64,000 bases of DNA from Escherichia coli (GTDB lineage: Bacteria; Pseudomonadota; Gammaproteobacteria; Enterobacterales; Enterobacteriaceae), in assembly GCF_044324785.1 (NCBI RefSeq), contig NZ_CP172127.1; one strand, written 5' to 3'. Position numbers and translations under genes: made by a program. Positions within the stretch are counted from its first letter, which is position 1. The number at the start of each line of letters is the position of its first letter. The notes under the pieces are model-generated. The model ran no database searches. It saw only the letters and a program-made list of their open reading frames with translations, and had not been told where the DNA came from. This document shows positions 7,731 to 63,568 of the stretch, piece by piece.

Positions 7731-9269
7731 ATGCAACAACCTGTAGTTCGCGTTGGCGAATGGCTTGTTACTCCGTCCATAAACCAAATTAGCCGCAATG
7801 GGCGTCAACTTACCCTTGAGCCGAGATTAATCGATCTTCTGGTTTTCTTTGCTCAACACAGTGGCGAAGTACTTAGCAGGGATGAACTTATCGATAATGT
7901 CTGGAAGAGAAGTATTGTCACCAATCACGTTGTGACGCAGAGTATCTCAGAACTACGTAAGTCATTAAAAGATAATGATGAAGATAGTCCTGTCTATATC
8001 GCTACTGTACCAAAGCGCGGCTATAAATTAATGGTGCCGGTTATCTGGTACAGCGAAGAAGAGGGAGAGGAAATAATGCTATCTTCGCCTCCCCCTATAC
8101 CAGAGGCGGTTCCTGACACAGCTTCTCCCTCCCACAGTCTTAACATTCAAAACACCGCAACACCACCTGAACAATCCCCTGTTAAAAGCAAACGATTCAC
8201 TACCTTTTGGGTATGGTTTTTTTTCCTGTTGTCGTTAGGTATCTGTGTAGCACTGGTAGCGTTTTCAAGTCTTGATACACGTCTTCCTATGAGCAAATCG
8301 CGTATTTTGCTCAATCCACGCGATATTGACATTAATATGGTTAATAAGAGTTGTAACAGCTGGAGTTCTCCGTATCAGCTCTCTTACGCGATAGGCGTGG
8401 GTGATTTGGTGGCGACATCACTTAACACCTTCTCCACCTTTATGGTGCATGACAAAATCAACTACAACATTGATGAACCGAGCAGTTCCGGTAAAACATT
8501 ATCTATTGCGTTTGTTAATCAGCGCCAATACCGTGCTCAACAATGCTTTATGTCGGTAAAATTGGTAGACAATGCAGATGGTTCAACCATGCTGGATAAA
8601 CGTTATGTCATCACTAACGGTAATCAGCTGGCGATTCAAAATGATTTACTCCAGAGTTTATCAAAAGCGTTAAACCAACCATGGCCACAACGAATGCAGG
8701 AGATGCTCCAGCAAATTTTGCCGCATCGTGGTGCGTTATTAACTAATTTTTATCAGGCACATGATTATTTACTGCATGGTGATGATAAATCATTGGATCG
8801 TGCCAGTGAATTATTAGGTGAGATTGTTCAATCATCCCCAGAATTTACCTACGCGAGAGCAGAAAAAGCATTAGTTGATATCGTGCGCCATTCTCAACAT
8901 CCTTTAGCCGAAAAACAATTAGCAGCACTGAACACAGAAATAGATAACATTGTTACACTGCCGGAATTGAACAACCTGTCCATTATATATCAAATAAAAG
9001 CGGTCAGTGCCCTGGTAAAAGGTAAAACAGATGAGTCTTATCAGGCGATAAATACTGGCATTGATCTTGAAATGTCCTGGCTAAATTATGTGTTGCTTGG
9101 CAAGGTTTATGAAATGAAGGGGATGAACCGGGAAGCAGCTGATGCATATCTCACCGCCTTTAATTTACGCCCAGGGGCAAACACCCTTTACTGGATTGAA
9201 AATGGTATATTCCAGACTTCTGTTCCTTATGTTGTACCTTATCTCGACAAATTTCTCGCTTCAGAATAA
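7731..9269 (+). CDS. cadC: CadC, membrane-integrated ToxR-like transcriptional activator of the cad operon
   Basis: 512 aa, recognised as E. coli CadC; synteny with cadBA. Confidence 0.95.
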   Translation: MQQPVVRVGEWLVTPSINQISRNGRQLTLEPRLIDLLVFFAQHSGEVLSRDELIDNVWKRSIVTNHVVTQSISELRKSLKDNDEDSPVYIATVPKRGYKLMVPVIWYSEEEGEEIMLSSPPPIPEAVPDTASPSHSLNIQNTATPPEQSPVKSKRFTTFWVWFFFLLSLGICVALVAFSSLDTRLPMSKSRILLNPRDIDINMVNKSCNSWSSPYQLSYAIGVGDLVATSLNTFSTFMVHDKINYNIDEPSSSGKTLSIAFVNQRQYRAQQCFMSVKLVDNADGSTMLDKRYVITNGNQLAIQNDLLQSLSKALNQPWPQRMQEMLQQILPHRGALLTNFYQAHDYLLHGDDKSLDRASELLGEIVQSSPEFTYARAEKALVDIVRHSQHPLAEKQLAALNTEIDNIVTLPELNNLSIIYQIKAVSALVKGKTDESYQAINTGIDLEMSWLNYVLLGKVYEMKGMNREAADAYLTAFNLRPGANTLYWIENGIFQTSVPYVVPYLDKFLASE

Positions 9270-22341: not shown

Positions 22342-23988
22342 ATGTCAAACAAACCCTTTATCTACCAGGCACCTTTCCCGATGGGGAAAGACAATACCGA
22401 ATACTATCTACTCACTTCCGATTACGTTAGCGTTTCCGACTTCGACGGCGAAACCATTCTGAAAGTGGAACCAGAAGCCCTGACCCTGCTGGCGCAGCAA
22501 GCCTTTCACGACGCTTCTTTCATGCTCCGCCCGGCCCACCAGAAACAGGTCGCGGCTATTCTTCACGATCCAGAAGCCAGCGAAAACGACAAGTACGTGG
22601 CGCTGCAATTCTTAAGAAACTCCGAAATCGCCGCCAAAGGCGTACTGCCGACCTGCCAGGACACCGGCACCGCGATCATCGTCGGTAAAAAAGGCCAGCG
22701 CGTGTGGACCGGTGGCGGTGATGAAGAAGCGCTGTCGAAAGGCGTCTATAACACCTATATCGAGGATAACCTGCGCTATTCACAGAACGCGCCGCTGGAC
22801 ATGTATAAAGAGGTCAACACCGGCACGAACCTGCCTGCGCAAATCGACCTGTACGCGGTAGATGGCGATGAGTACAAATTCCTTTGCGTTGCGAAAGGCG
22901 GCGGCTCTGCCAACAAAACCTATCTCTACCAGGAAACCAAAGCCCTGCTGACTCCCGGCAAACTGAAAAACTTCCTCGTTGAGAAAATGCGTACCCTCGG
23001 TACTGCAGCCTGCCCGCCGTACCATATCGCGTTTGTGATTGGCGGTACGTCTGCGGAAACCAACCTGAAAACCGTCAAGTTAGCAAGCGCTCACTATTAC
23101 GATGAACTGCCGACGGAAGGGAACGAACATGGTCAGGCGTTCCGCGATGTCCAGCTGGAACAGGAACTGCTGGAAGAGGCCCAGAAACTCGGTCTTGGCG
23201 CGCAGTTTGGCGGTAAATACTTCGCGCACGACATTCGCGTTATCCGTCTGCCACGTCACGGCGCATCCTGCCCGGTAGGCATGGGCGTCTCCTGCTCCGC
23301 TGACCGTAACATTAAAGCGAAAATCAACCGCGAAGGTATCTGGATCGAAAAACTGGAACACAATCCAGGCCAGTACATTCCACAAGAACTGCGTCAGGCC
23401 GGTGAAGGCGAAGCGGTGAAAGTCGACCTTAACCGCCCGATGAAAGAGATCCTCGCCCAGCTTTCGCAATACCCGGTATCCACCCGCTTGTCGCTCACCG
23501 GCACCATTATCGTGGGTCGAGATATTGCACACGCCAAGCTGAAAGAGCTGATTGACGCCGGTAAAGAACTGCCGCAGTACATCAAAGATCACCCGATCTA
23601 CTACGCGGGTCCGGCGAAAACGCCTGCCGGTTATCCATCAGGTTCACTTGGCCCAACCACCGCAGGTCGTATGGACTCCTACGTGGATCTGCTGCAATCC
23701 CACGGCGGCAGCATGATCATGCTGGCGAAAGGCAACCGCAGCCAGCAGGTTACCGACGCGTGCCATAAACACGGCGGCTTTTACCTCGGTAGCATCGGCG
23801 GTCCAGCGGCGGTACTGGCGCAGCAGAGCATCAAGCATCTGGAATGCGTCGCTTATCCGGAGCTGGGTATGGAAGCTATCTGGAAAATCGAAGTAGAAGA
23901 TTTCCCGGCGTTTATCCTGGTCGATGACAAAGGTAACGACTTCTTCCAGCAAATCGTCAACAAACAGTGCGCGAACTGCACTAAGTAA
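22342..23988 (+). CDS. fumB: Class I fumarate hydratase (anaerobic)
   Basis: 548 aa; assigned fumB rather than fumA by position downstream of dcuB. Confidence 0.9.
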
Positions 23989-24110: not shown

Positions 24111-24761
24111 ATGACCCGCACACTCAAGCCGTTAATTCTTAACACCGGCGCACTGGCGCTAACGTTAATCCTGATTTATACCGGCATTTCGGCCCATGAC
24201 AAACTCACCTGGCTGATGGAAGTGACACCGGTGATTATTGTCGTGCCGCTACTGCTTGCCACCGCCAGACGTTATCCGTTAACGCCGCTGCTCTATACGC
24301 TCATTTTCTTTCACGCCATCATCCTGATGGTCGGCGGACAATACACCTACGCGAAAGTCCCCGTTGGTTTTGAGGTGCAGGAATGGCTGGGGTTGAGTCG
24401 TAATCCGTATGACAAGCTGGGGCACTTTTTCCAGGGGCTGGTGCCTGCACTGGTGGCACGAGAAATTCTCGTTCGCGGGATGTACGTGCGCGGACGTAAA
24501 ATGGTGGCGTTCCTGGTCTGCTGCGTGGCGCTGGCGATAAGCGCGATGTATGAATTAATCGAGTGGTGGGCGGCGCTGGCAATGGGCCAGGGAGCGGATG
24601 ATTTTCTCGGCACCCAGGGCGACCAGTGGGACACGCAATCCGATATGTTCTGCGCGCTGCTTGGCGCATTAACGACGGTGATATTCCTCGCTCGCTTTCA
24701 TTGCCGCCAGCTACGGCGCTTTGGCTTAATCACCAGAGCGCCGGAAGCGATTACCCCTTAA
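24111..24761 (+). CDS. yjdF: Inner membrane protein YjdF (DUF2238)
   Basis: 216 aa hydrophobic protein; stop codon shares the tetranucleotide TTAA with the melA stop on the other strand. Confidence 0.8.
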   Translation: MTRTLKPLILNTGALALTLILIYTGISAHDKLTWLMEVTPVIIVVPLLLATARRYPLTPLLYTLIFFHAIILMVGGQYTYAKVPVGFEVQEWLGLSRNPYDKLGHFFQGLVPALVAREILVRGMYVRGRKMVAFLVCCVALAISAMYELIEWWAALAMGQGADDFLGTQGDQWDTQSDMFCALLGALTTVIFLARFHCRQLRRFGLITRAPEAITP

Positions 24762-26113
24762 CGGTGCAACCAGCCAGGCAGCCAGTCGCCGTGGGCAGCA
24801 ATCAAGTCGTCAACAAGAGCATATATTTCGTCAATGCCCAGCACGGCGGCAGTATGCGGGTCCATCATCGCGGCGTGGTAAACACGGTCGCGATTTTCCG
24901 TAAGAATGGCTTCGGTCAGCAGCGTCTGTACGTTGATGTTGGTTTGCATCAGAGCGGCCAGATGCGAAGGTAGCGTACCGACTTTGGTCGGCTGAATGCC
25001 ATTAGCATCAACCAGACAGGCTACTTCCACGCAACATCCTTGTGGCAGGTTATCAATCAAACCATCGTTACGGACGTTGCCGTAAATCACACTCGGCTCG
25101 CCAGTCCAGATAGCGTTCATGATTGTGCTGGCATATTCCCGTGACGGTTTAATATCAATCCGGGAGGCGTTTTTATACTCCTCCAGCTCTTTATGCCAGT
25201 TCGCCAGCTGCTCGACGCAGCGTTTCGGGTACTCATCCAGCGGTACTTTATAACGCTCAATCAAATCCTCACGACCTGGCTTAATAAACCACGGTGTGTA
25301 CTCAGCAAAATGTTCTGACGATTCCGTGACGAAGTAGCCCAGCTTTTTGAACATTTCGTAGCGCACAATATTCTGGCAGCGAGTATTGCCATGAATATTC
25401 GGCTTCGGTGCCTGCCCTGCTTCATAAGCCGCCAGCAGTTCCGGGTAGAGATTCACGTAACTGCCGTCGGCGGTTTTGCGCTCCAGTTCCAGGTAAAACG
25501 CCATATGGTTGATACCTGCGCAACGGTAACGTAGCGTAGCCGGGTCGATATTGAGGTCACGCGCCAGCTCTTCCGCCGTTCCCTGCACCGAATGGCACAA
25601 CCCTACCTGTTTGATATGCGGATAGTGGGCATACATCGCCCAGGTATTCATCGCCATTGGGTTAACGTAGTTGAGCATGGTGGCATCGGGGCAGACTTCC
25701 GTCATGTCCTCGCAAATTTGCCACAGATGCGGAATGGTACGTAGCGCGCGCATAATACCGCCCGGCCCCAACGTATCGGCAATGGTTTGTTCCAGACCAT
25801 GCCGCTTACAGACCTCGAAATCAGTCACCGTGCAAGGTTCATAACCGCCAATCTGAAATGCCACCACCACAAAATCGGCATCCTGTAAGGCTTCTTTCTG
25901 TTGGGTGTGGCAGGTGATTTTGCCGCTGGCCCCTGCTGAATCCATCAGCTTACGCACCACAATGTGCGACTCTTCCAGGCGGGTGGGATCAATGTCCATC
26001 AGGGCAATATGCGCCGTTTTCAGCGCCTCGCGATGGAACACATCACCAAGAATATTTTTAACGAAAATCGTCGAACCAGCGCCGATAAATGTAATTTTGG
26101 GTGCAGACATCAT
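24758..26113 (-). CDS. melA: Alpha-galactosidase (melibiase), GH4
   Basis: 451 aa; N-terminal NAD-binding GAGS motif. Confidence 0.9.
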   Translation of the reverse strand: MMSAPKITFIGAGSTIFVKNILGDVFHREALKTAHIALMDIDPTRLEESHIVVRKLMDSAGASGKITCHTQQKEALQDADFVVVAFQIGGYEPCTVTDFEVCKRHGLEQTIADTLGPGGIMRALRTIPHLWQICEDMTEVCPDATMLNYVNPMAMNTWAMYAHYPHIKQVGLCHSVQGTAEELARDLNIDPATLRYRCAGINHMAFYLELERKTADGSYVNLYPELLAAYEAGQAPKPNIHGNTRCQNIVRYEMFKKLGYFVTESSEHFAEYTPWFIKPGREDLIERYKVPLDEYPKRCVEQLANWHKELEEYKNASRIDIKPSREYASTIMNAIWTGEPSVIYGNVRNDGLIDNLPQGCCVEVACLVDANGIQPTKVGTLPSHLAALMQTNINVQTLLTEAILTENRDRVYHAAMMDPHTAAVLGIDEIYALVDDLIAAHGDWLPGWLHR

Positions 26114-26395: not shown

Positions 26396-27304
26396 ATGAA
26401 TACAGATACGTTTATGTGCAGCAGCGACGAAAAACAGACCCGCAGCCCGCTGTCGCTGTATTCGGAATACCAGCGGATGGAGATTGAGTTTCGCGCACCG
26501 CATATCATGCCCACCAGCCACTGGCATGGTCAGGTCGAAGTGAATGTGCCTTTCGATGGCGATGTGGAATACCTGATCAACAATGAAAAAGTGAATATCA
26601 ATCAGGGTCATATCACGCTGTTCTGGGCCTGTACACCGCACCAACTAACAGATACCGGAACCTGTCAGAGCATGGCGATTTTTAATCTGCCGATGCATCT
26701 GTTTCTCTCCTGGCCGCTGGATAAAGACCTGATTAACCACGTCACTCACGGCATGGTGATCAAATCACTGGCCACACAGCAACTTAGCCCGTTTGAAGTG
26801 CGCCGCTGGCAGCAGGAATTGAACAGTCCGAACGAGCAAATTCGCCAGCTCGCCATTGATGAAATTGGCCTGATGCTCAAGCGATTTAGCCTCTCTGGCT
26901 GGGAACCGATTCTGGTCAATAAAACCTCGCGCACACACAAAAACAGCGTCTCGCGCCATGCGCAATTTTATGTCAGCCAGATGCTGGGCTTTATTGCCGA
27001 AAACTATGATCAGGCGCTGACCATCAACGATGTGGCTGAGCACGTCAAACTTAACGCCAACTATGCAATGGGGATATTCCAGCGGGTCATGCAATTGACG
27101 ATGAAACAGTACATAACCGCGATGCGCATCAACCACGTTCGCGCGTTACTGAGCGATACCGATAAAAATATTCTCGATATTGCCCTGACGGCAGGCTTTC
27201 GTTCAAGTAGTCGTTTTTACAGCACGTTCGGCAAATATGTCGGCATGTCGCCGCAACAATACCGCAAACTTAGCCAACAGCGCCGCCAGACGTTTCCCGG
27301 CTAA
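26396..27304 (+). CDS. melR: AraC-family melibiose operon activator
   Basis: 302 aa; C-terminal AraC-type HTH. Confidence 0.9.
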   Translation: MNTDTFMCSSDEKQTRSPLSLYSEYQRMEIEFRAPHIMPTSHWHGQVEVNVPFDGDVEYLINNEKVNINQGHITLFWACTPHQLTDTGTCQSMAIFNLPMHLFLSWPLDKDLINHVTHGMVIKSLATQQLSPFEVRRWQQELNSPNEQIRQLAIDEIGLMLKRFSLSGWEPILVNKTSRTHKNSVSRHAQFYVSQMLGFIAENYDQALTINDVAEHVKLNANYAMGIFQRVMQLTMKQYITAMRINHVRALLSDTDKNILDIALTAGFRSSSRFYSTFGKYVGMSPQQYRKLSQQRRQTFPG

Positions 27305-34762: not shown

Positions 34763-35854
34763 ATGCGTTTTCTGCGCAGACCAATATCGCTGCGCCAACG
34801 GCTGATATTGACCATCGGGGCCATTTTGTTGGTGTTTGAGCTGATCAGCGTCTTCTGGCTATGGCATGAAAGTACCGAGCAGATTCAGCTGTTTGAGCAG
34901 GCGCTACGCGACAATCGCAACAACGATCGCCACATCATGCGTGAGATCCGCGAGGCGGTCGCCAGCCTGATTGTCCCCGGCGTCTTTATGGTCAGCCTGA
35001 CGCTATTTATCTGCTATCAGGCGGTACGCCGCATCACCCGGCCGCTGGCGGAGCTGCAAAAAGAGCTGGAAGCGCGCACCGCCGACAATTTAACGCCTAT
35101 TGCCATTCACAGTGCCACCCTCGAAATCGAAGCGGTGGTTTCGGCGTTAAACGATCTGGTCAGTCGCCTGACCAGCACGCTGGATAACGAAAGGTTGTTT
35201 ACCGCTGACGTCGCGCACGAACTGCGAACGCCACTGGCGGGGGTGCGTTTGCATCTGGAACTGCTGGCGAAAACGCATCACATTGATGTAGCACCGTTAG
35301 TGGCACGGCTTGATCAGATGATGGAGAGTGTCTCCCAGCTACTGCAACTGGCGCGTGCCGGACAGTCATTTTCTTCCGGGAATTATCAACATGTAAAACT
35401 GCTGGAAGATGTCATTCTCCCCTCGTATGACGAACTCAGTACCATGCTCGACCAGCGCCAGCAAACCCTGCTATTGCCAGAGAGCGCCGCCGACATCACC
35501 GTTCAGGGTGATGCAACCCTGCTGCGGATGTTATTGCGAAACCTGGTAGAAAATGCCCATCGTTACAGCCCGCAAGGCAGCAACATTATGATTAAGCTGC
35601 AAGAAGATGGCGGAGCGGTCATGGCCGTTGAAGATGAAGGACCGGGTATTGATGAGAGTAAATGCGGGGAGTTGAGTAAAGCGTTTGTACGTATGGACAG
35701 CCGTTATGGCGGGATTGGTCTGGGGTTAAGTATTGTCAGCCGCATTACACAGTTGCATCACGGGCAGTTTTTCCTGCAAAACCGGCAAGAAACTTCCGGC
35801 ACGCGGGCCTGGGTACGGCTGAAGAAAGATCAGAACGTGGCAAACCAGATATAA
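34763..35854 (+). CDS. basS: Sensor kinase BasS (PmrB)
   Basis: 363 aa from the ATG at MRFLRRP; ORF track begins at an upstream TTG (34754). Confidence 0.85.
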   Translation: MRFLRRPISLRQRLILTIGAILLVFELISVFWLWHESTEQIQLFEQALRDNRNNDRHIMREIREAVASLIVPGVFMVSLTLFICYQAVRRITRPLAELQKELEARTADNLTPIAIHSATLEIEAVVSALNDLVSRLTSTLDNERLFTADVAHELRTPLAGVRLHLELLAKTHHIDVAPLVARLDQMMESVSQLLQLARAGQSFSSGNYQHVKLLEDVILPSYDELSTMLDQRQQTLLLPESAADITVQGDATLLRMLLRNLVENAHRYSPQGSNIMIKLQEDGGAVMAVEDEGPGIDESKCGELSKAFVRMDSRYGGIGLGLSIVSRITQLHHGQFFLQNRQETSGTRAWVRLKKDQNVANQI

Positions 35855-35919
35855 AGAAAGCTGCTGACCACCAGCACGCTGAACACGGTAGTTAAACTTT
35901 CATAAACACGGTTTTTCAT
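35830..35919 (-). CDS. pmrR: PmrR small membrane protein (29 aa)
   Basis: Hand-translated minus-strand ORF MKNRVYESLTTVFSVLVVSSFLYIWFATF; overlaps the basS 3' end antisense. Confidence 0.6.
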   Translation of the reverse strand: MKNRVYESLTTVFSVLVVSSFLYIWFATF

Positions 35920-36030
35920 TGCACTCTCCTCCGTTAACCTGGAGGAGAGTATGCGCGTCAGAGATTAAGTGAACCTTAAGAGTTCAATTGGCCTGATAAG
36001 ACAGCGTCACATCAGGCCATCCGTTTCAGC

Positions 36031-41637: not shown

Positions 41638-41655
41638 TTGTATTGTGATCGGTAA

Positions 41656-41731
41656 GCCGGATAAGGCGCTCGCGCCGCATCCGGCAACGATGCCGACAGC
41701 CTGATGCGACGCTGACCGCGTCTTATCAGGC
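41656..41731. repeat. REP/BIME palindromic repeat cluster
   Basis: gccggataaggcg...cgccgcatccggc and gcctgatgcgacgctg...cgtcttatcaggc imperfect palindromes. Confidence 0.5.
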
Positions 41732-41796
41732 TTCCCTCTCATCTGTATAAATTTCGAACTACACTTAACTGGCTTCTCTTAACTGAGGTCACCATC

Positions 41797-44202: not shown

Positions 44203-44209
44203 ATCGTAA

Positions 44210-44292
44210 GTCGGATAAGACGCCACGGCGTCGCATCCGACAATGTGCAGACGTTGATGCCGGATGCGGTGCAAGCACCTTATCCGGCCTAC
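44210..44292. repeat. REP/BIME palindromic repeat cluster
   Basis: gtcggataagacgccacggcgtcgcatccgac and gccggatgcggtgcaagcaccttatccggc. Confidence 0.5.
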
Positions 44293-53618: not shown

Positions 53619-53814
53619 TCAATTTCTCCGCTGCTCTATTGCCGTAATCGCCTCCACGCGTTGTTGATGACGACCGCCTTCGTACTGCGCGCCCAGCCAC
53701 GCATCCACAATCATTTTTGCCAGTTCGAGGCCAACCACTCGTGAACCAAAAGCCAGTGCAACTTCACTGGCGTAATGCGGATAATCAGTGCGCTCTGACG
53801 ACCTGGTTCTTTAT
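53619..53814 (-). pseudogene. rpiB: Degenerate remnant of rpiB (ribose-5-phosphate isomerase B)
   Basis: Minus-strand translation gives SSERTDYPHYASEVALA fused to FGSRVVGLELAKMIVDAWLGAQYEGGRHQQRVEAITAIEQRRN-stop, matching RpiB N- and C-terminal segments as I recall them with the catalytic middle missing; upstream frame is closed. Confidence 0.45.
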
Positions 53815-54147
53815 CAATCCCCTCACTCATTGACCATAAATACAAGGCTGGCACAGCAACGCGGAATCCTGCGGTGCCAGCGACATGACCGCCCATTGCT
53901 CCGGTACTTTTTTTAAAAAGAAACATCGGTTGCATTGATAAATATATAAAACACCTCATATTATTTACGGAGATAATAAATTCGCGTGCTTTTCCCTCTT
54001 CAGCACAAATGCCTAATAAAATGGCTCGTTCCGCTCACACTTCCACTTATTAAAGTCGCAATTTCCCAATTATGATAACGCCAGCTTTAAATGACGTATT
54101 TTGCATGGGTTACATATTTACGACACAAATGATAAATGGAGATTTAT

Positions 54148-61378: not shown

Positions 61379-63526
61379 ATGAAAAAAGTCGTCACGGTTT
61401 GCCCCTATTGCGCATCAGGTTGCAAAATCAACCTGGTCGTCGATAACGGCAAAATCGTCCGGGCGGAGGCAGCGCAGGGGAAAACCAACCAGGGTACCCT
61501 GTGTCTGAAGGGTTATTATGGCTGGGATTTCATTAACGATACCCAGATCCTGACCCCGCGCCTGAAAACCCCCATGATCCGTCGCCAGCGTGGCGGCAAA
61601 CTCGAACCTGTTTCCTGGGATGAGGCACTGAATTACGTTGCCGAGCGCCTGAGCGCCATCAAAGAGAAGTACGGTCCGGATGCCATCCAGACGACCGGCT
61701 CCTCGCGTGGTACGGGTAACGAAACCAACTATGTAATGCAAAAATTTGCGCGCGCCGTTATTGGTACCAATAACGTTGACTGCTGCGCTCGTGTCTGACA
61801 CGGCCCATCGGTTGCAGGTCTGCACCAATCGGTCGGTAATGGCGCAATGAGCAATGCTATTAACGAAATTGATAATACCGATTTAGTGTTCGTTTTCGGG
61901 TACAACCCGGCGGATTCCCACCCAATCGTGGCGAACCACGTAATTAACGCTAAACGTAACGGGGCGAAAATTATCGTCTGCGATCCGCGCAAAATTGAAA
62001 CCGCGCGCATTGCTGACATGCACATTGCACTGAAAAACGGCTCGAACATCGCGCTGTTGAATGCGATGGGTCATGTCATTATTGAAGAAAACCTGTACGA
62101 CAAAGCTTTCGTCGCTTCCCGTACAGAAGGCTTTGAAGAGTATCGTAAAATCGTTGAAGGCTACACGCCGGAGTCGGTTGAAGATATCACCGGCGTCAGC
62201 GCCAGTGAGATTCGTCAGGCGGCGCGGATGTATGCCCAGGCGAAAAGCGCCGCCATCCTGTGGGGCATGGGTGTAACCCAGTTCTACCAGGGCGTGGAAA
62301 CCGTGCGTTCTCTGACCAGCCTCGCGATGCTGACTGGTAACCTCGGTAAGCCGCATGCGGGTGTAAACCCGGTTCGTGGTCAGAACAACGTGCAGGGTGC
62401 CTGCGATATGGGCGCGCTGCCGGATACGTATCCGGGATACCAGTACGTGAAAGATCCGGCTAACCGCGAGAAATTCGCCAAAGCCTGGGGCGTGGAAAAC
62501 CTGCCTGCTCATACCGGCTATCGCATCAGCGAGCTGCCGCACCGCGCAGCGCATGGCGAAGTGCGTGCCGCGTACATTATGGGCGAAGATCCGCTGCAAA
62601 CTGACGCGGAGCTGTCGGCAGTACGTAAAGCCTTTGAAGATCTGGAACTGGTCATCGTTCAGGACATCTTTATGACCAAAACCGCGTCGGCTGCGGATGT
62701 TATTTTACCATCAACGTCGTGGGGCGAGCATGAAGGCGTGTTTACTGCGGCTGACCGTGGCTTCCAGCGTTTCTTCAAGGCGGTTGAACCGAAGTGGGAT
62801 CTGAAAACGGACTGGCAAATCATCAGTGAAATTGCCACTCGTATGGGTTATCCGATGCACTACAACAACACCCAGGAGATCTGGGATGAGTTGCGTCATC
62901 TGTGCCCGGATTTCTACGGTGCGACTTACGAGAAAATGGGCGAACTGGGCTTCATTCAGTGGCCTTGCCGCGATACTTCAGATGCCGATCAGGGGACTTC
63001 TTATCTGTTTAAAGAGAAGTTTGATACCCCGAACGGTCTGGCGCAGTTCTTCACCTGCGACTGGGTAGCGCCAATCGACAAACTCACCGACGAGTACCCG
63101 ATGGTACTGTCAACGGTGCGTGAAGTTGGTCACTACTCTTGCCGTTCGATGACCGGTAACTGTGCGGCACTGGCGGCGCTGGCTGATGAACCTGGCTACG
63201 CACAAATCAATACCGAAGACGCCAAACGTCTGGGTATTGAAGATGAGGCATTGGTTTGGGTGCACTCGCGTAAAGGCAAAATTATCACCCGTGCGCAGGT
63301 CAGCGATCGTCCGAACAAAGGGGCGATTTACATGACCTACCAGTGGTGGATTGGTGCCTGTAACGAGCTGGTTACCGAAAACTTAAGCCCGATTACGAAA
63401 ACGCCGGAATACAAATACTGCGCCGTGCGCGTCGAGCCGATCGCCGATCAGCGCGCCGCCGAGCAGTACGTGATTGACGAGTACAACAAGTTGAAAACTC
63501 GCCTGCGCGAAGCGGCACTGGCGTAA
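61379..63526 (+). CDS. fdhF: Formate dehydrogenase H, selenocysteine-containing (in-frame UGA at 61796-61798 decoded as Sec)
   Basis: ORF track splits the gene at TGA 61796-61798, but the same frame continues to 63526 giving 715 codons; N-terminal Cys cluster CPYCASGC. Confidence 0.9.
61796..61840 (+). other. UGA-Sec codon plus SECIS stem-loop of fdhF
   Basis: tgacacggcccatcggttgcaggtctgcaccaatcggtcggtaatggcg immediately 3' of the in-frame UGA, matching the classical fdhF SECIS as I recall it. Confidence 0.7.
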
Positions 63527-63540
63527 TACAGTCCTTTCTA

Positions 63541-63568
63541 CAGCCTCCTTCCGGAGGCTGTTTTTTTA
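63541..63568 (+). terminator. Rho-independent terminator of fdhF
   Basis: cagcctcc ttcc ggaggctg followed by ttttttt. Confidence 0.6.

Follow-up and report, generated by a model that had tools for sequence, protein, structure and literature searches.

The stretch of Escherichia coli DNA analysed here (the window; 64,000 nt) carries dcuB, fumB, yjdF, melA, melR and adiA between 20.9 and 29.8 kb, which is the gene order of E. coli K-12 with melB left out. In a BLAST alignment with K-12 MG1655, homology on the yjdF side extended up to window position 24737 and resumed at 24758, the melA stop. The space between the homologous flanks is only 20 nt; in K-12 the same breakpoints are separated by 1,665 bp, consisting of a 102-bp melA–melB spacer, melB (473 aa), a 138-bp melB–yjdF spacer and the yjdF stop. 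The K-12-type melAB operon has melB directly 3' of melA, and this arrangement was not found in the window; a tblastn search with K-12 MelB matched nothing anywhere in its 64 kb (best E = 0.38, over 13 residues). A first-pass annotation, made from the sequence of the window, had reported that melB is absent from between melA and yjdF, that this departs from the K-12 order and that the stop codons of the two genes overlap in a TTAA with no spacer between them; all of this was borne out by the alignments. The features are listed in Table 1. Convergent yjdF and melA genes with a 4-nt overlap, the order fumB–yjdF–melA–melR without melB, the junction sequence …ACCAGAGCGCCGGAAGCGATTACCCCTTAA… and a 216-aa YjdF with the tail RAPEAITP together define the B2/042-type junction allele, and each of these was present in the window.

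Table 1. Features of the yjdF–melA region in the window, followed by two features of comparison loci.
Feature	Position	Strand	Details
fumB	22342-23988	+	
yjdF, 216-aa form	24111-24761	+	ORF; DUF2238 inner-membrane protein, Pfam DUF2238 E = 1e-58
Stem-loop spanning the left breakpoint	24714-24743		Repeat search; 11-bp stem CGGCGCTTTGG / CCAGAGCGCCG, 8-nt loop
Changed YjdF C-terminus	24735-24758	+	Codon 209 AGA (R) versus GGA (G), then seven added codons (APEAITP)
Junction remnant, 20 nt	24738-24757		BLAST breakpoints; in place of 1,665 bp in K-12
TTAA common to both convergent stops (yjdF, melA)	24758-24761		
yjdF stop codon TAA	24759-24761	+	
melA stop codon	complement of 24758-24760	-	
melA, predicted alpha-galactosidase (GH4), intact	24758-26113	-	ORF and Pfam; 451 aa
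melR, AraC-family activator of the mel promoter, intact	26396-27304	+	ORF and Pfam; 302 aa
SemiSWEET gene (Citrobacter/Kluyvera)	L018 6645-6899	-	Also in loci L016, L017, L019, L020, L052 and L055
Low-divergence melB tract	L007 ~6710-8310 (MOD1-EC7003)		Corresponds to L003 12826-14419 (E. coli ST69)

YjdF ends in ...GLITRAPEAITP (216 aa) in the window and in ...GLITG (209 aa) in K-12. The difference, G209R followed by APEAITP, lies outside the DUF2238 domain (residues 42–182); the altered YjdF C-terminus suspected in the first-pass annotation is real. A tail of the same length was present in all melB-less Escherichia loci, reading RAPEAITP or RAPEATTP and, in E. albertii, RAPEALNL. A two-base overlap between opposite-strand TAA stops necessarily gives TTAA. 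TTAG stands in its place in 042, CMZE087, Escherichia sp. E1V33, E. whittamii and E. albertii, and the variable A/G base is silent in both genes (melA Arg CGT/CGC; yjdF stop TAA/TAG). Judged from these alignments, the palindrome is incidental and unconserved, several relatives having TTAG. As a separate observation, yjdF is annotated as a pseudogene in CFT073 (frameshift; L061 31811-32453) and in CFSAN018748 (internal stop; L070 3672-4322), which suggests that yjdF is under weak constraint in parts of the species.

The RNA fold of positions 24700–24775 had a free energy of −27.5 kcal/mol (z = −2.8 on the + strand; z = −2.2 on the − strand). No U-run adjoins the stem-loop on either strand, a terminator and promoter scan of the junction found no canonical terminator between the convergent yjdF and melA, and an Rfam search of the junction returned no RNA family. 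On this anatomy, antisense read-through transcription between the two genes is possible. The marks of a mobile-element-mediated deletion were not found at the junction: there was no IS remnant, no terminal inverted repeats and no target-site duplication, the 11-bp inverted repeat of the stem-loop being the sole repeat.

The frequency of the junction was determined among 5,426 complete E. coli genomes. A 2.1-kb query over the junction was matched without interruption in 1,267 of them, and a 221-bp junction query was covered over at least 80% of its length in 1,264 (identity 95.5–100%). The melB-less junction is therefore carried by ~23% of complete E. coli (~1,265 of 5,426), including 042, CFT073 and the type strain ATCC 11775. 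The K-12 melB was found in 4,136 genomes (76%). The melB set and the junction set are thus near-complementary, adding up to 5,403 of the 5,426 genomes, and melB can therefore be located elsewhere in the genome at most rarely; a displaced melB had been offered as one way in which the reported absence could fail, and the population sets make it improbable. The junction of the window is 100% identical over 221 bp to that of CFSAN018748 and identical over the 53 nt compared to those of ATCC 11775, CFT073 and Z247. In the RefSeq annotation, the same 651-nt yjdF overlaps melA in 042, CFT073 and ATCC 11775 (= DSM 30083T), and the YjdF and MelA proteins of the window are 100% identical to those of 042. 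That the junction arose by a recent loss in this strain alone, or from collapse of the assembly, the latter a concern raised at the outset, can be given practically no credence: nothing speaks for it beyond the plain difference from K-12, the identical junction occurs in ~1,265 independently finished genomes as well as in other species, and the junction has gathered polymorphism of its own.

The complete genomes nearest to the window are ~99.0% identical to it over 25 kb, with 042 as the best match, and they mix both states, 042 being melB-less and MS 69-1, for example, melB-positive. Identity to the B2 strain CFT073 was 97.2%. Because the window is closest to 042 rather than to B2, the melB-less allele is not confined to B2. 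Between the window and the melB-less loci of B2 and some D strains (CFT073, ATCC 11775 / DSM 30083T, 042) there is no structural difference, as all share the gene order, the breakpoints, the 20-nt remnant, the 216-aa YjdF and the 4-nt overlap. With K-12 the window is collinear over melR, the divergent promoter region and melA (98.7% identity); K-12 differs in having the melA–melB spacer, melB, the melB–yjdF spacer and the 209-aa YjdF ending in ...ITG*.

Loci from other species were gathered by a scan of species-representative genomes with YjdF, which returned no type genome of E. fergusonii, E. marmotae or E. ruysiae, so that the cross-species picture is incomplete. The same geometry and remnant were present in Escherichia sp. 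E1V33 (93.1% identical to the window over 12.6 kb), in 'E. coli' SCPM-O-B-8794, a separate species representative (92.8%), and in E. whittamii (91.8%). In E. albertii (NBRC 107761, L008 6640-6890; 89.6%) the 216-aa yjdF and the junction are followed by only 34 nt of melA, from its 3' end, before the adiA upstream region begins. This arrangement is a nested deletion of 2.5 kb that took out melA and melR later on; it is consistent with the melibiose-negative phenotype of that species (PMC9523302). Over the 300 nt around the junction, identity was close to the locus-wide value (93.0 versus 92.8%, 90.7 versus 91.8% and 88.0 versus 89.6%). Since the divergence of the junction equals the species divergence of the locus as a whole, the junction is shared by old common descent and not by recent introgression or transfer. 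E1V33 is a mosaic in fumB–yjdF and hence less informative on age. When its locus was used as a query for cryptic-clade genomes among the complete 'E. coli', none was closer than 96.2%.

The window thus very probably carries the common, old, inherited melB-less form of the Escherichia mel locus. The allele would have had a single origin long before E. coli diversified and would since have been vertically inherited. A loss of ~1.65 kb, comprising the yjdF stop, the melB–yjdF spacer, melB and most of the melA–melB spacer, would have joined the 3' ends of yjdF and melA, after which yjdF would have continued over ~20 nt of residual spacer and ended at a new stop overlapping that of melA. Within the remnant lies GCGCCGGAA, which matches the left arm of the melA–melB spacer hairpin and is in the expected place and orientation; this hairpin is conserved in Escherichia (K-12), Citrobacter and Kluyvera. 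Although GCGCCGGAA is the best match of the remnant in the K-12 insert, 25% of shuffled queries scored equally, and the collinear match, insignificant alone, only suggests that the remnant may be derived from the spacer. Such an origin also requires a second small loss, namely that of the right arm of the hairpin.

The direction of the change was read from Citrobacter and Kluyvera. The order yjdF–(84-aa SemiSWEET)–melB–melA–melR was found in Citrobacter braakii, C. portucalensis, Kluyvera and C. amalonaticus S646, the last being the one of two sampled C. amalonaticus genomes with the SemiSWEET–melB arrangement. The YjdF of C. amalonaticus ends in ...IAG*, like the ...ITG* of K-12. From this gene order and the short YjdF end it follows that the melB-containing form is ancestral in the family and that the 216-aa fused YjdF is derived. 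The SemiSWEET gene (84 aa; Pfam PQ-loop, MtN3_slv), which sits between melB and yjdF in the melB-keeping Citrobacter and Kluyvera, was absent from every Escherichia locus examined. Convergent yjdF and melA genes without melB, with melA and melR kept, also occur in the Citrobacter youngae group and in Citrobacter sp. MGH106 (L010-L012 ~6620-6695; L015 ~4620-4690), likewise without SemiSWEET. Unlike the window, these loci have a 67–70-nt spacer with a REP-like hairpin and a YjdF of normal length; because their junctions differ, their melB losses were independent. Erosion of this catabolic locus has been stepwise, SemiSWEET being lost first, then melB and then, in E. albertii, melA and melR, and with the parallel losses in Citrobacter the enzyme and the regulator are seen to outlast the dedicated transporter.

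Within Escherichia the history of melB itself is less straightforward. The melB tract of Escherichia sp. MOD1-EC7003 differs from that of E. coli ST69 by 3 nt over ~1.5–1.6 kb, compared with ~4% in the flanks, which are ~96–97% identical to E. coli, and the ends of the low-divergence tract lie close to the indel boundaries. This pattern indicates that the melB segment has been exchanged by recombination, in the MOD1-EC7003/ST69 pair recently and over a species-level boundary. One may therefore ask whether the melB-less form is the older one within Escherichia, the melB now present in K-12-like E. coli (phylogroups A, B1, E and ST69) having come back at a later time from some other lineage that retained the gene, by homologous recombination via yjdF and melA; the window would then show the original state and no loss. 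This is possible but doubtful. None of the four non-coli Escherichia lineages sampled has melB, phylogroup B2 lacks it too, and the exchange just described demonstrates that the segment moves. In six E. coli genomes the diversity of melB (0.72%) was below that of melA, yjdF and fumB (1.3–2.7%), which speaks for a re-import, but not below that of melR or adiA (~1.0%). Also in its favour, no flank site showed a fixed difference between genomes with and without melB; near-association with the melB indel was limited to the two final synonymous sites of yjdF. A re-import is countered by the divergence of MOD1-EC7003 from E. coli at 5 of 87 nt in the portion of the insert nearest yjdF, which makes the allele with melB old in its own right; moreover, the MelB protein search made no outside donor visible, the nearest non-Escherichia MelB being 87% identical (S. 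bongori) and others 83–85%, and the sampling of Escherichia species is incomplete. A seemingly intermediate MelB, P0003 (89% identical), was set aside as a donor; it comes from a low-coverage (2.7×) metagenome contig and is a chimera in which the first ~400 nt are foreign and the remainder is 99.9% K-12.

A further tentative reading is that the presence or absence of melB is a very long-lived polymorphism across species, in which both forms would have coexisted in a gene pool common to the genus since before the E. albertii split, kept by niche-dependent selection for and against the Na+/melibiose symporter, with melB repeatedly shuttled between lineages by homologous recombination and melA–melR always retained. 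Two elements of this reading, the age of the melB-less junction and one exchange of melB across lineages, are direct observations; the coexistence and the selection are conjectural. What looks modestly new in the present analysis is this picture of a very old cross-species Escherichia polymorphism with recombinational exchange of melB, which may be of interest to E. coli population geneticists; nothing fundamental is changed by it.

The two mel genes that remain appear sound, in agreement with the first-pass annotation, which had an alpha-galactosidase and its regulator (MelR, of the AraC family) retained at the locus. MelA has full-length Glyco_hydro_4 N- and C-terminal domains (Pfam E = 7e-82 and 8e-60) and is 99% identical to the K-12 protein; by its domains and this identity it is predicted to be a GH4 alpha-galactosidase. 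In comparisons with the melB-less Escherichia species, dN/dS was 0.014–0.020 for melA and 0.017–0.041 for melR at dS values of 0.28–0.43. Such low ratios imply that the enzyme and its activator stayed useful without a dedicated carrier.

The strain was further said to have no dedicated melibiose transporter. The absence of melB upholds this statement as such, but the melibiose-negative phenotype that it implies would be an unsafe prediction. The simplest expectation, that loss of melB makes a strain melibiose-negative and that the allele explains the ~25% of E. coli that do not ferment the sugar, draws on an apparent agreement in frequency, since 76% of complete genomes have melB and 75% of E. 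coli are reported as melibiose-positive (quoted in PMC11546641), and on a negative association of B2 with the melibiose pathway in gene content (Touchon et al., 2020; PMC7314097). We nevertheless regard it as unlikely. The type strain DSM 30083T (= ATCC 11775), in which the 53 nt of the junction are identical to those of the window, scored positive for melibiose in the API 20E and OmniLog tests, and M9 with this sugar supported its growth (PMC4334874), so that the melB frequency was set aside as the cause of the 75% positive rate. LacY, moreover, catalyses melibiose transport (PMC4308713), and the strong purifying selection on melA and melR in the melB-less lineages also speaks against this expectation. 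As the melB-less type strain uses melibiose, uptake probably proceeds via LacY. In the likeliest scheme, melibiose would enter through LacY or a different galactoside carrier, and melA would then be induced via MelR; the LacY route is drawn from other strains, lacY lying outside the window. On the preferred reading of an old, inherited melB-less allele, MelR and MelA would still be functional, melibiose and other alpha-galactosides would enter via another galactoside carrier, most likely LacY, and the strain would be without the dedicated Na+/melibiose symporter only, its use of melibiose probably being kept.

The absence of melB in B2 is already on record and the feature is in this respect ordinary: melB was listed as 'specifically absent' in group B2 strains (Touchon et al., 2009; PMC2617782, Table 5). 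A literature search found no paper on this melA–yjdF junction itself. Another natural lesion of the mel locus is the '70mel' allele of O80:H2, in which a 70-bp fragment stands in place of the entire mel operon (melR, melA, melB); these strains do not ferment melibiose and the lesion has a diagnostic use (PMC11945584). The window differs from it in lacking melB alone, with melA and melR left whole. Absence of melB next to a complete melA–melR pair is a normal allelic state of E. coli, found even in the type strain, and gives no ground for flagging an assembly error or for predicting a melibiose-negative strain.

Several further features were noted elsewhere in the window. Positions 1–7091 form the tail of a CP4-like island (DUF932, antirestriction, RadC, CbeA/CbtA toxin–antitoxin and DUF4942 genes), which shares only 91–93% identity with its counterpart in 042, against 99% for the neighbouring core from cadC on. 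Between yjdP and yjcS (53757–53937) the window, like 042, has no D-allose operon and no rpiB, the yjdP–yjcS segment measuring 6.85 kb in ATCC 11775 and ~180 nt in the window. A 5.5-kb ABC-transporter cluster between fdhF and yjcO, present in ATCC 11775, is absent from the window (63529–63559). Rfam matches above the gathering score were located at 35823–35988 (−), 41655–41732 (+), 44209–44289 (−) and 61791–61845 (+) and correspond to the sRNA STnc630 (between pmrB and proP), two naRNA4 elements (REP-derived) and the SECIS of fdhF.
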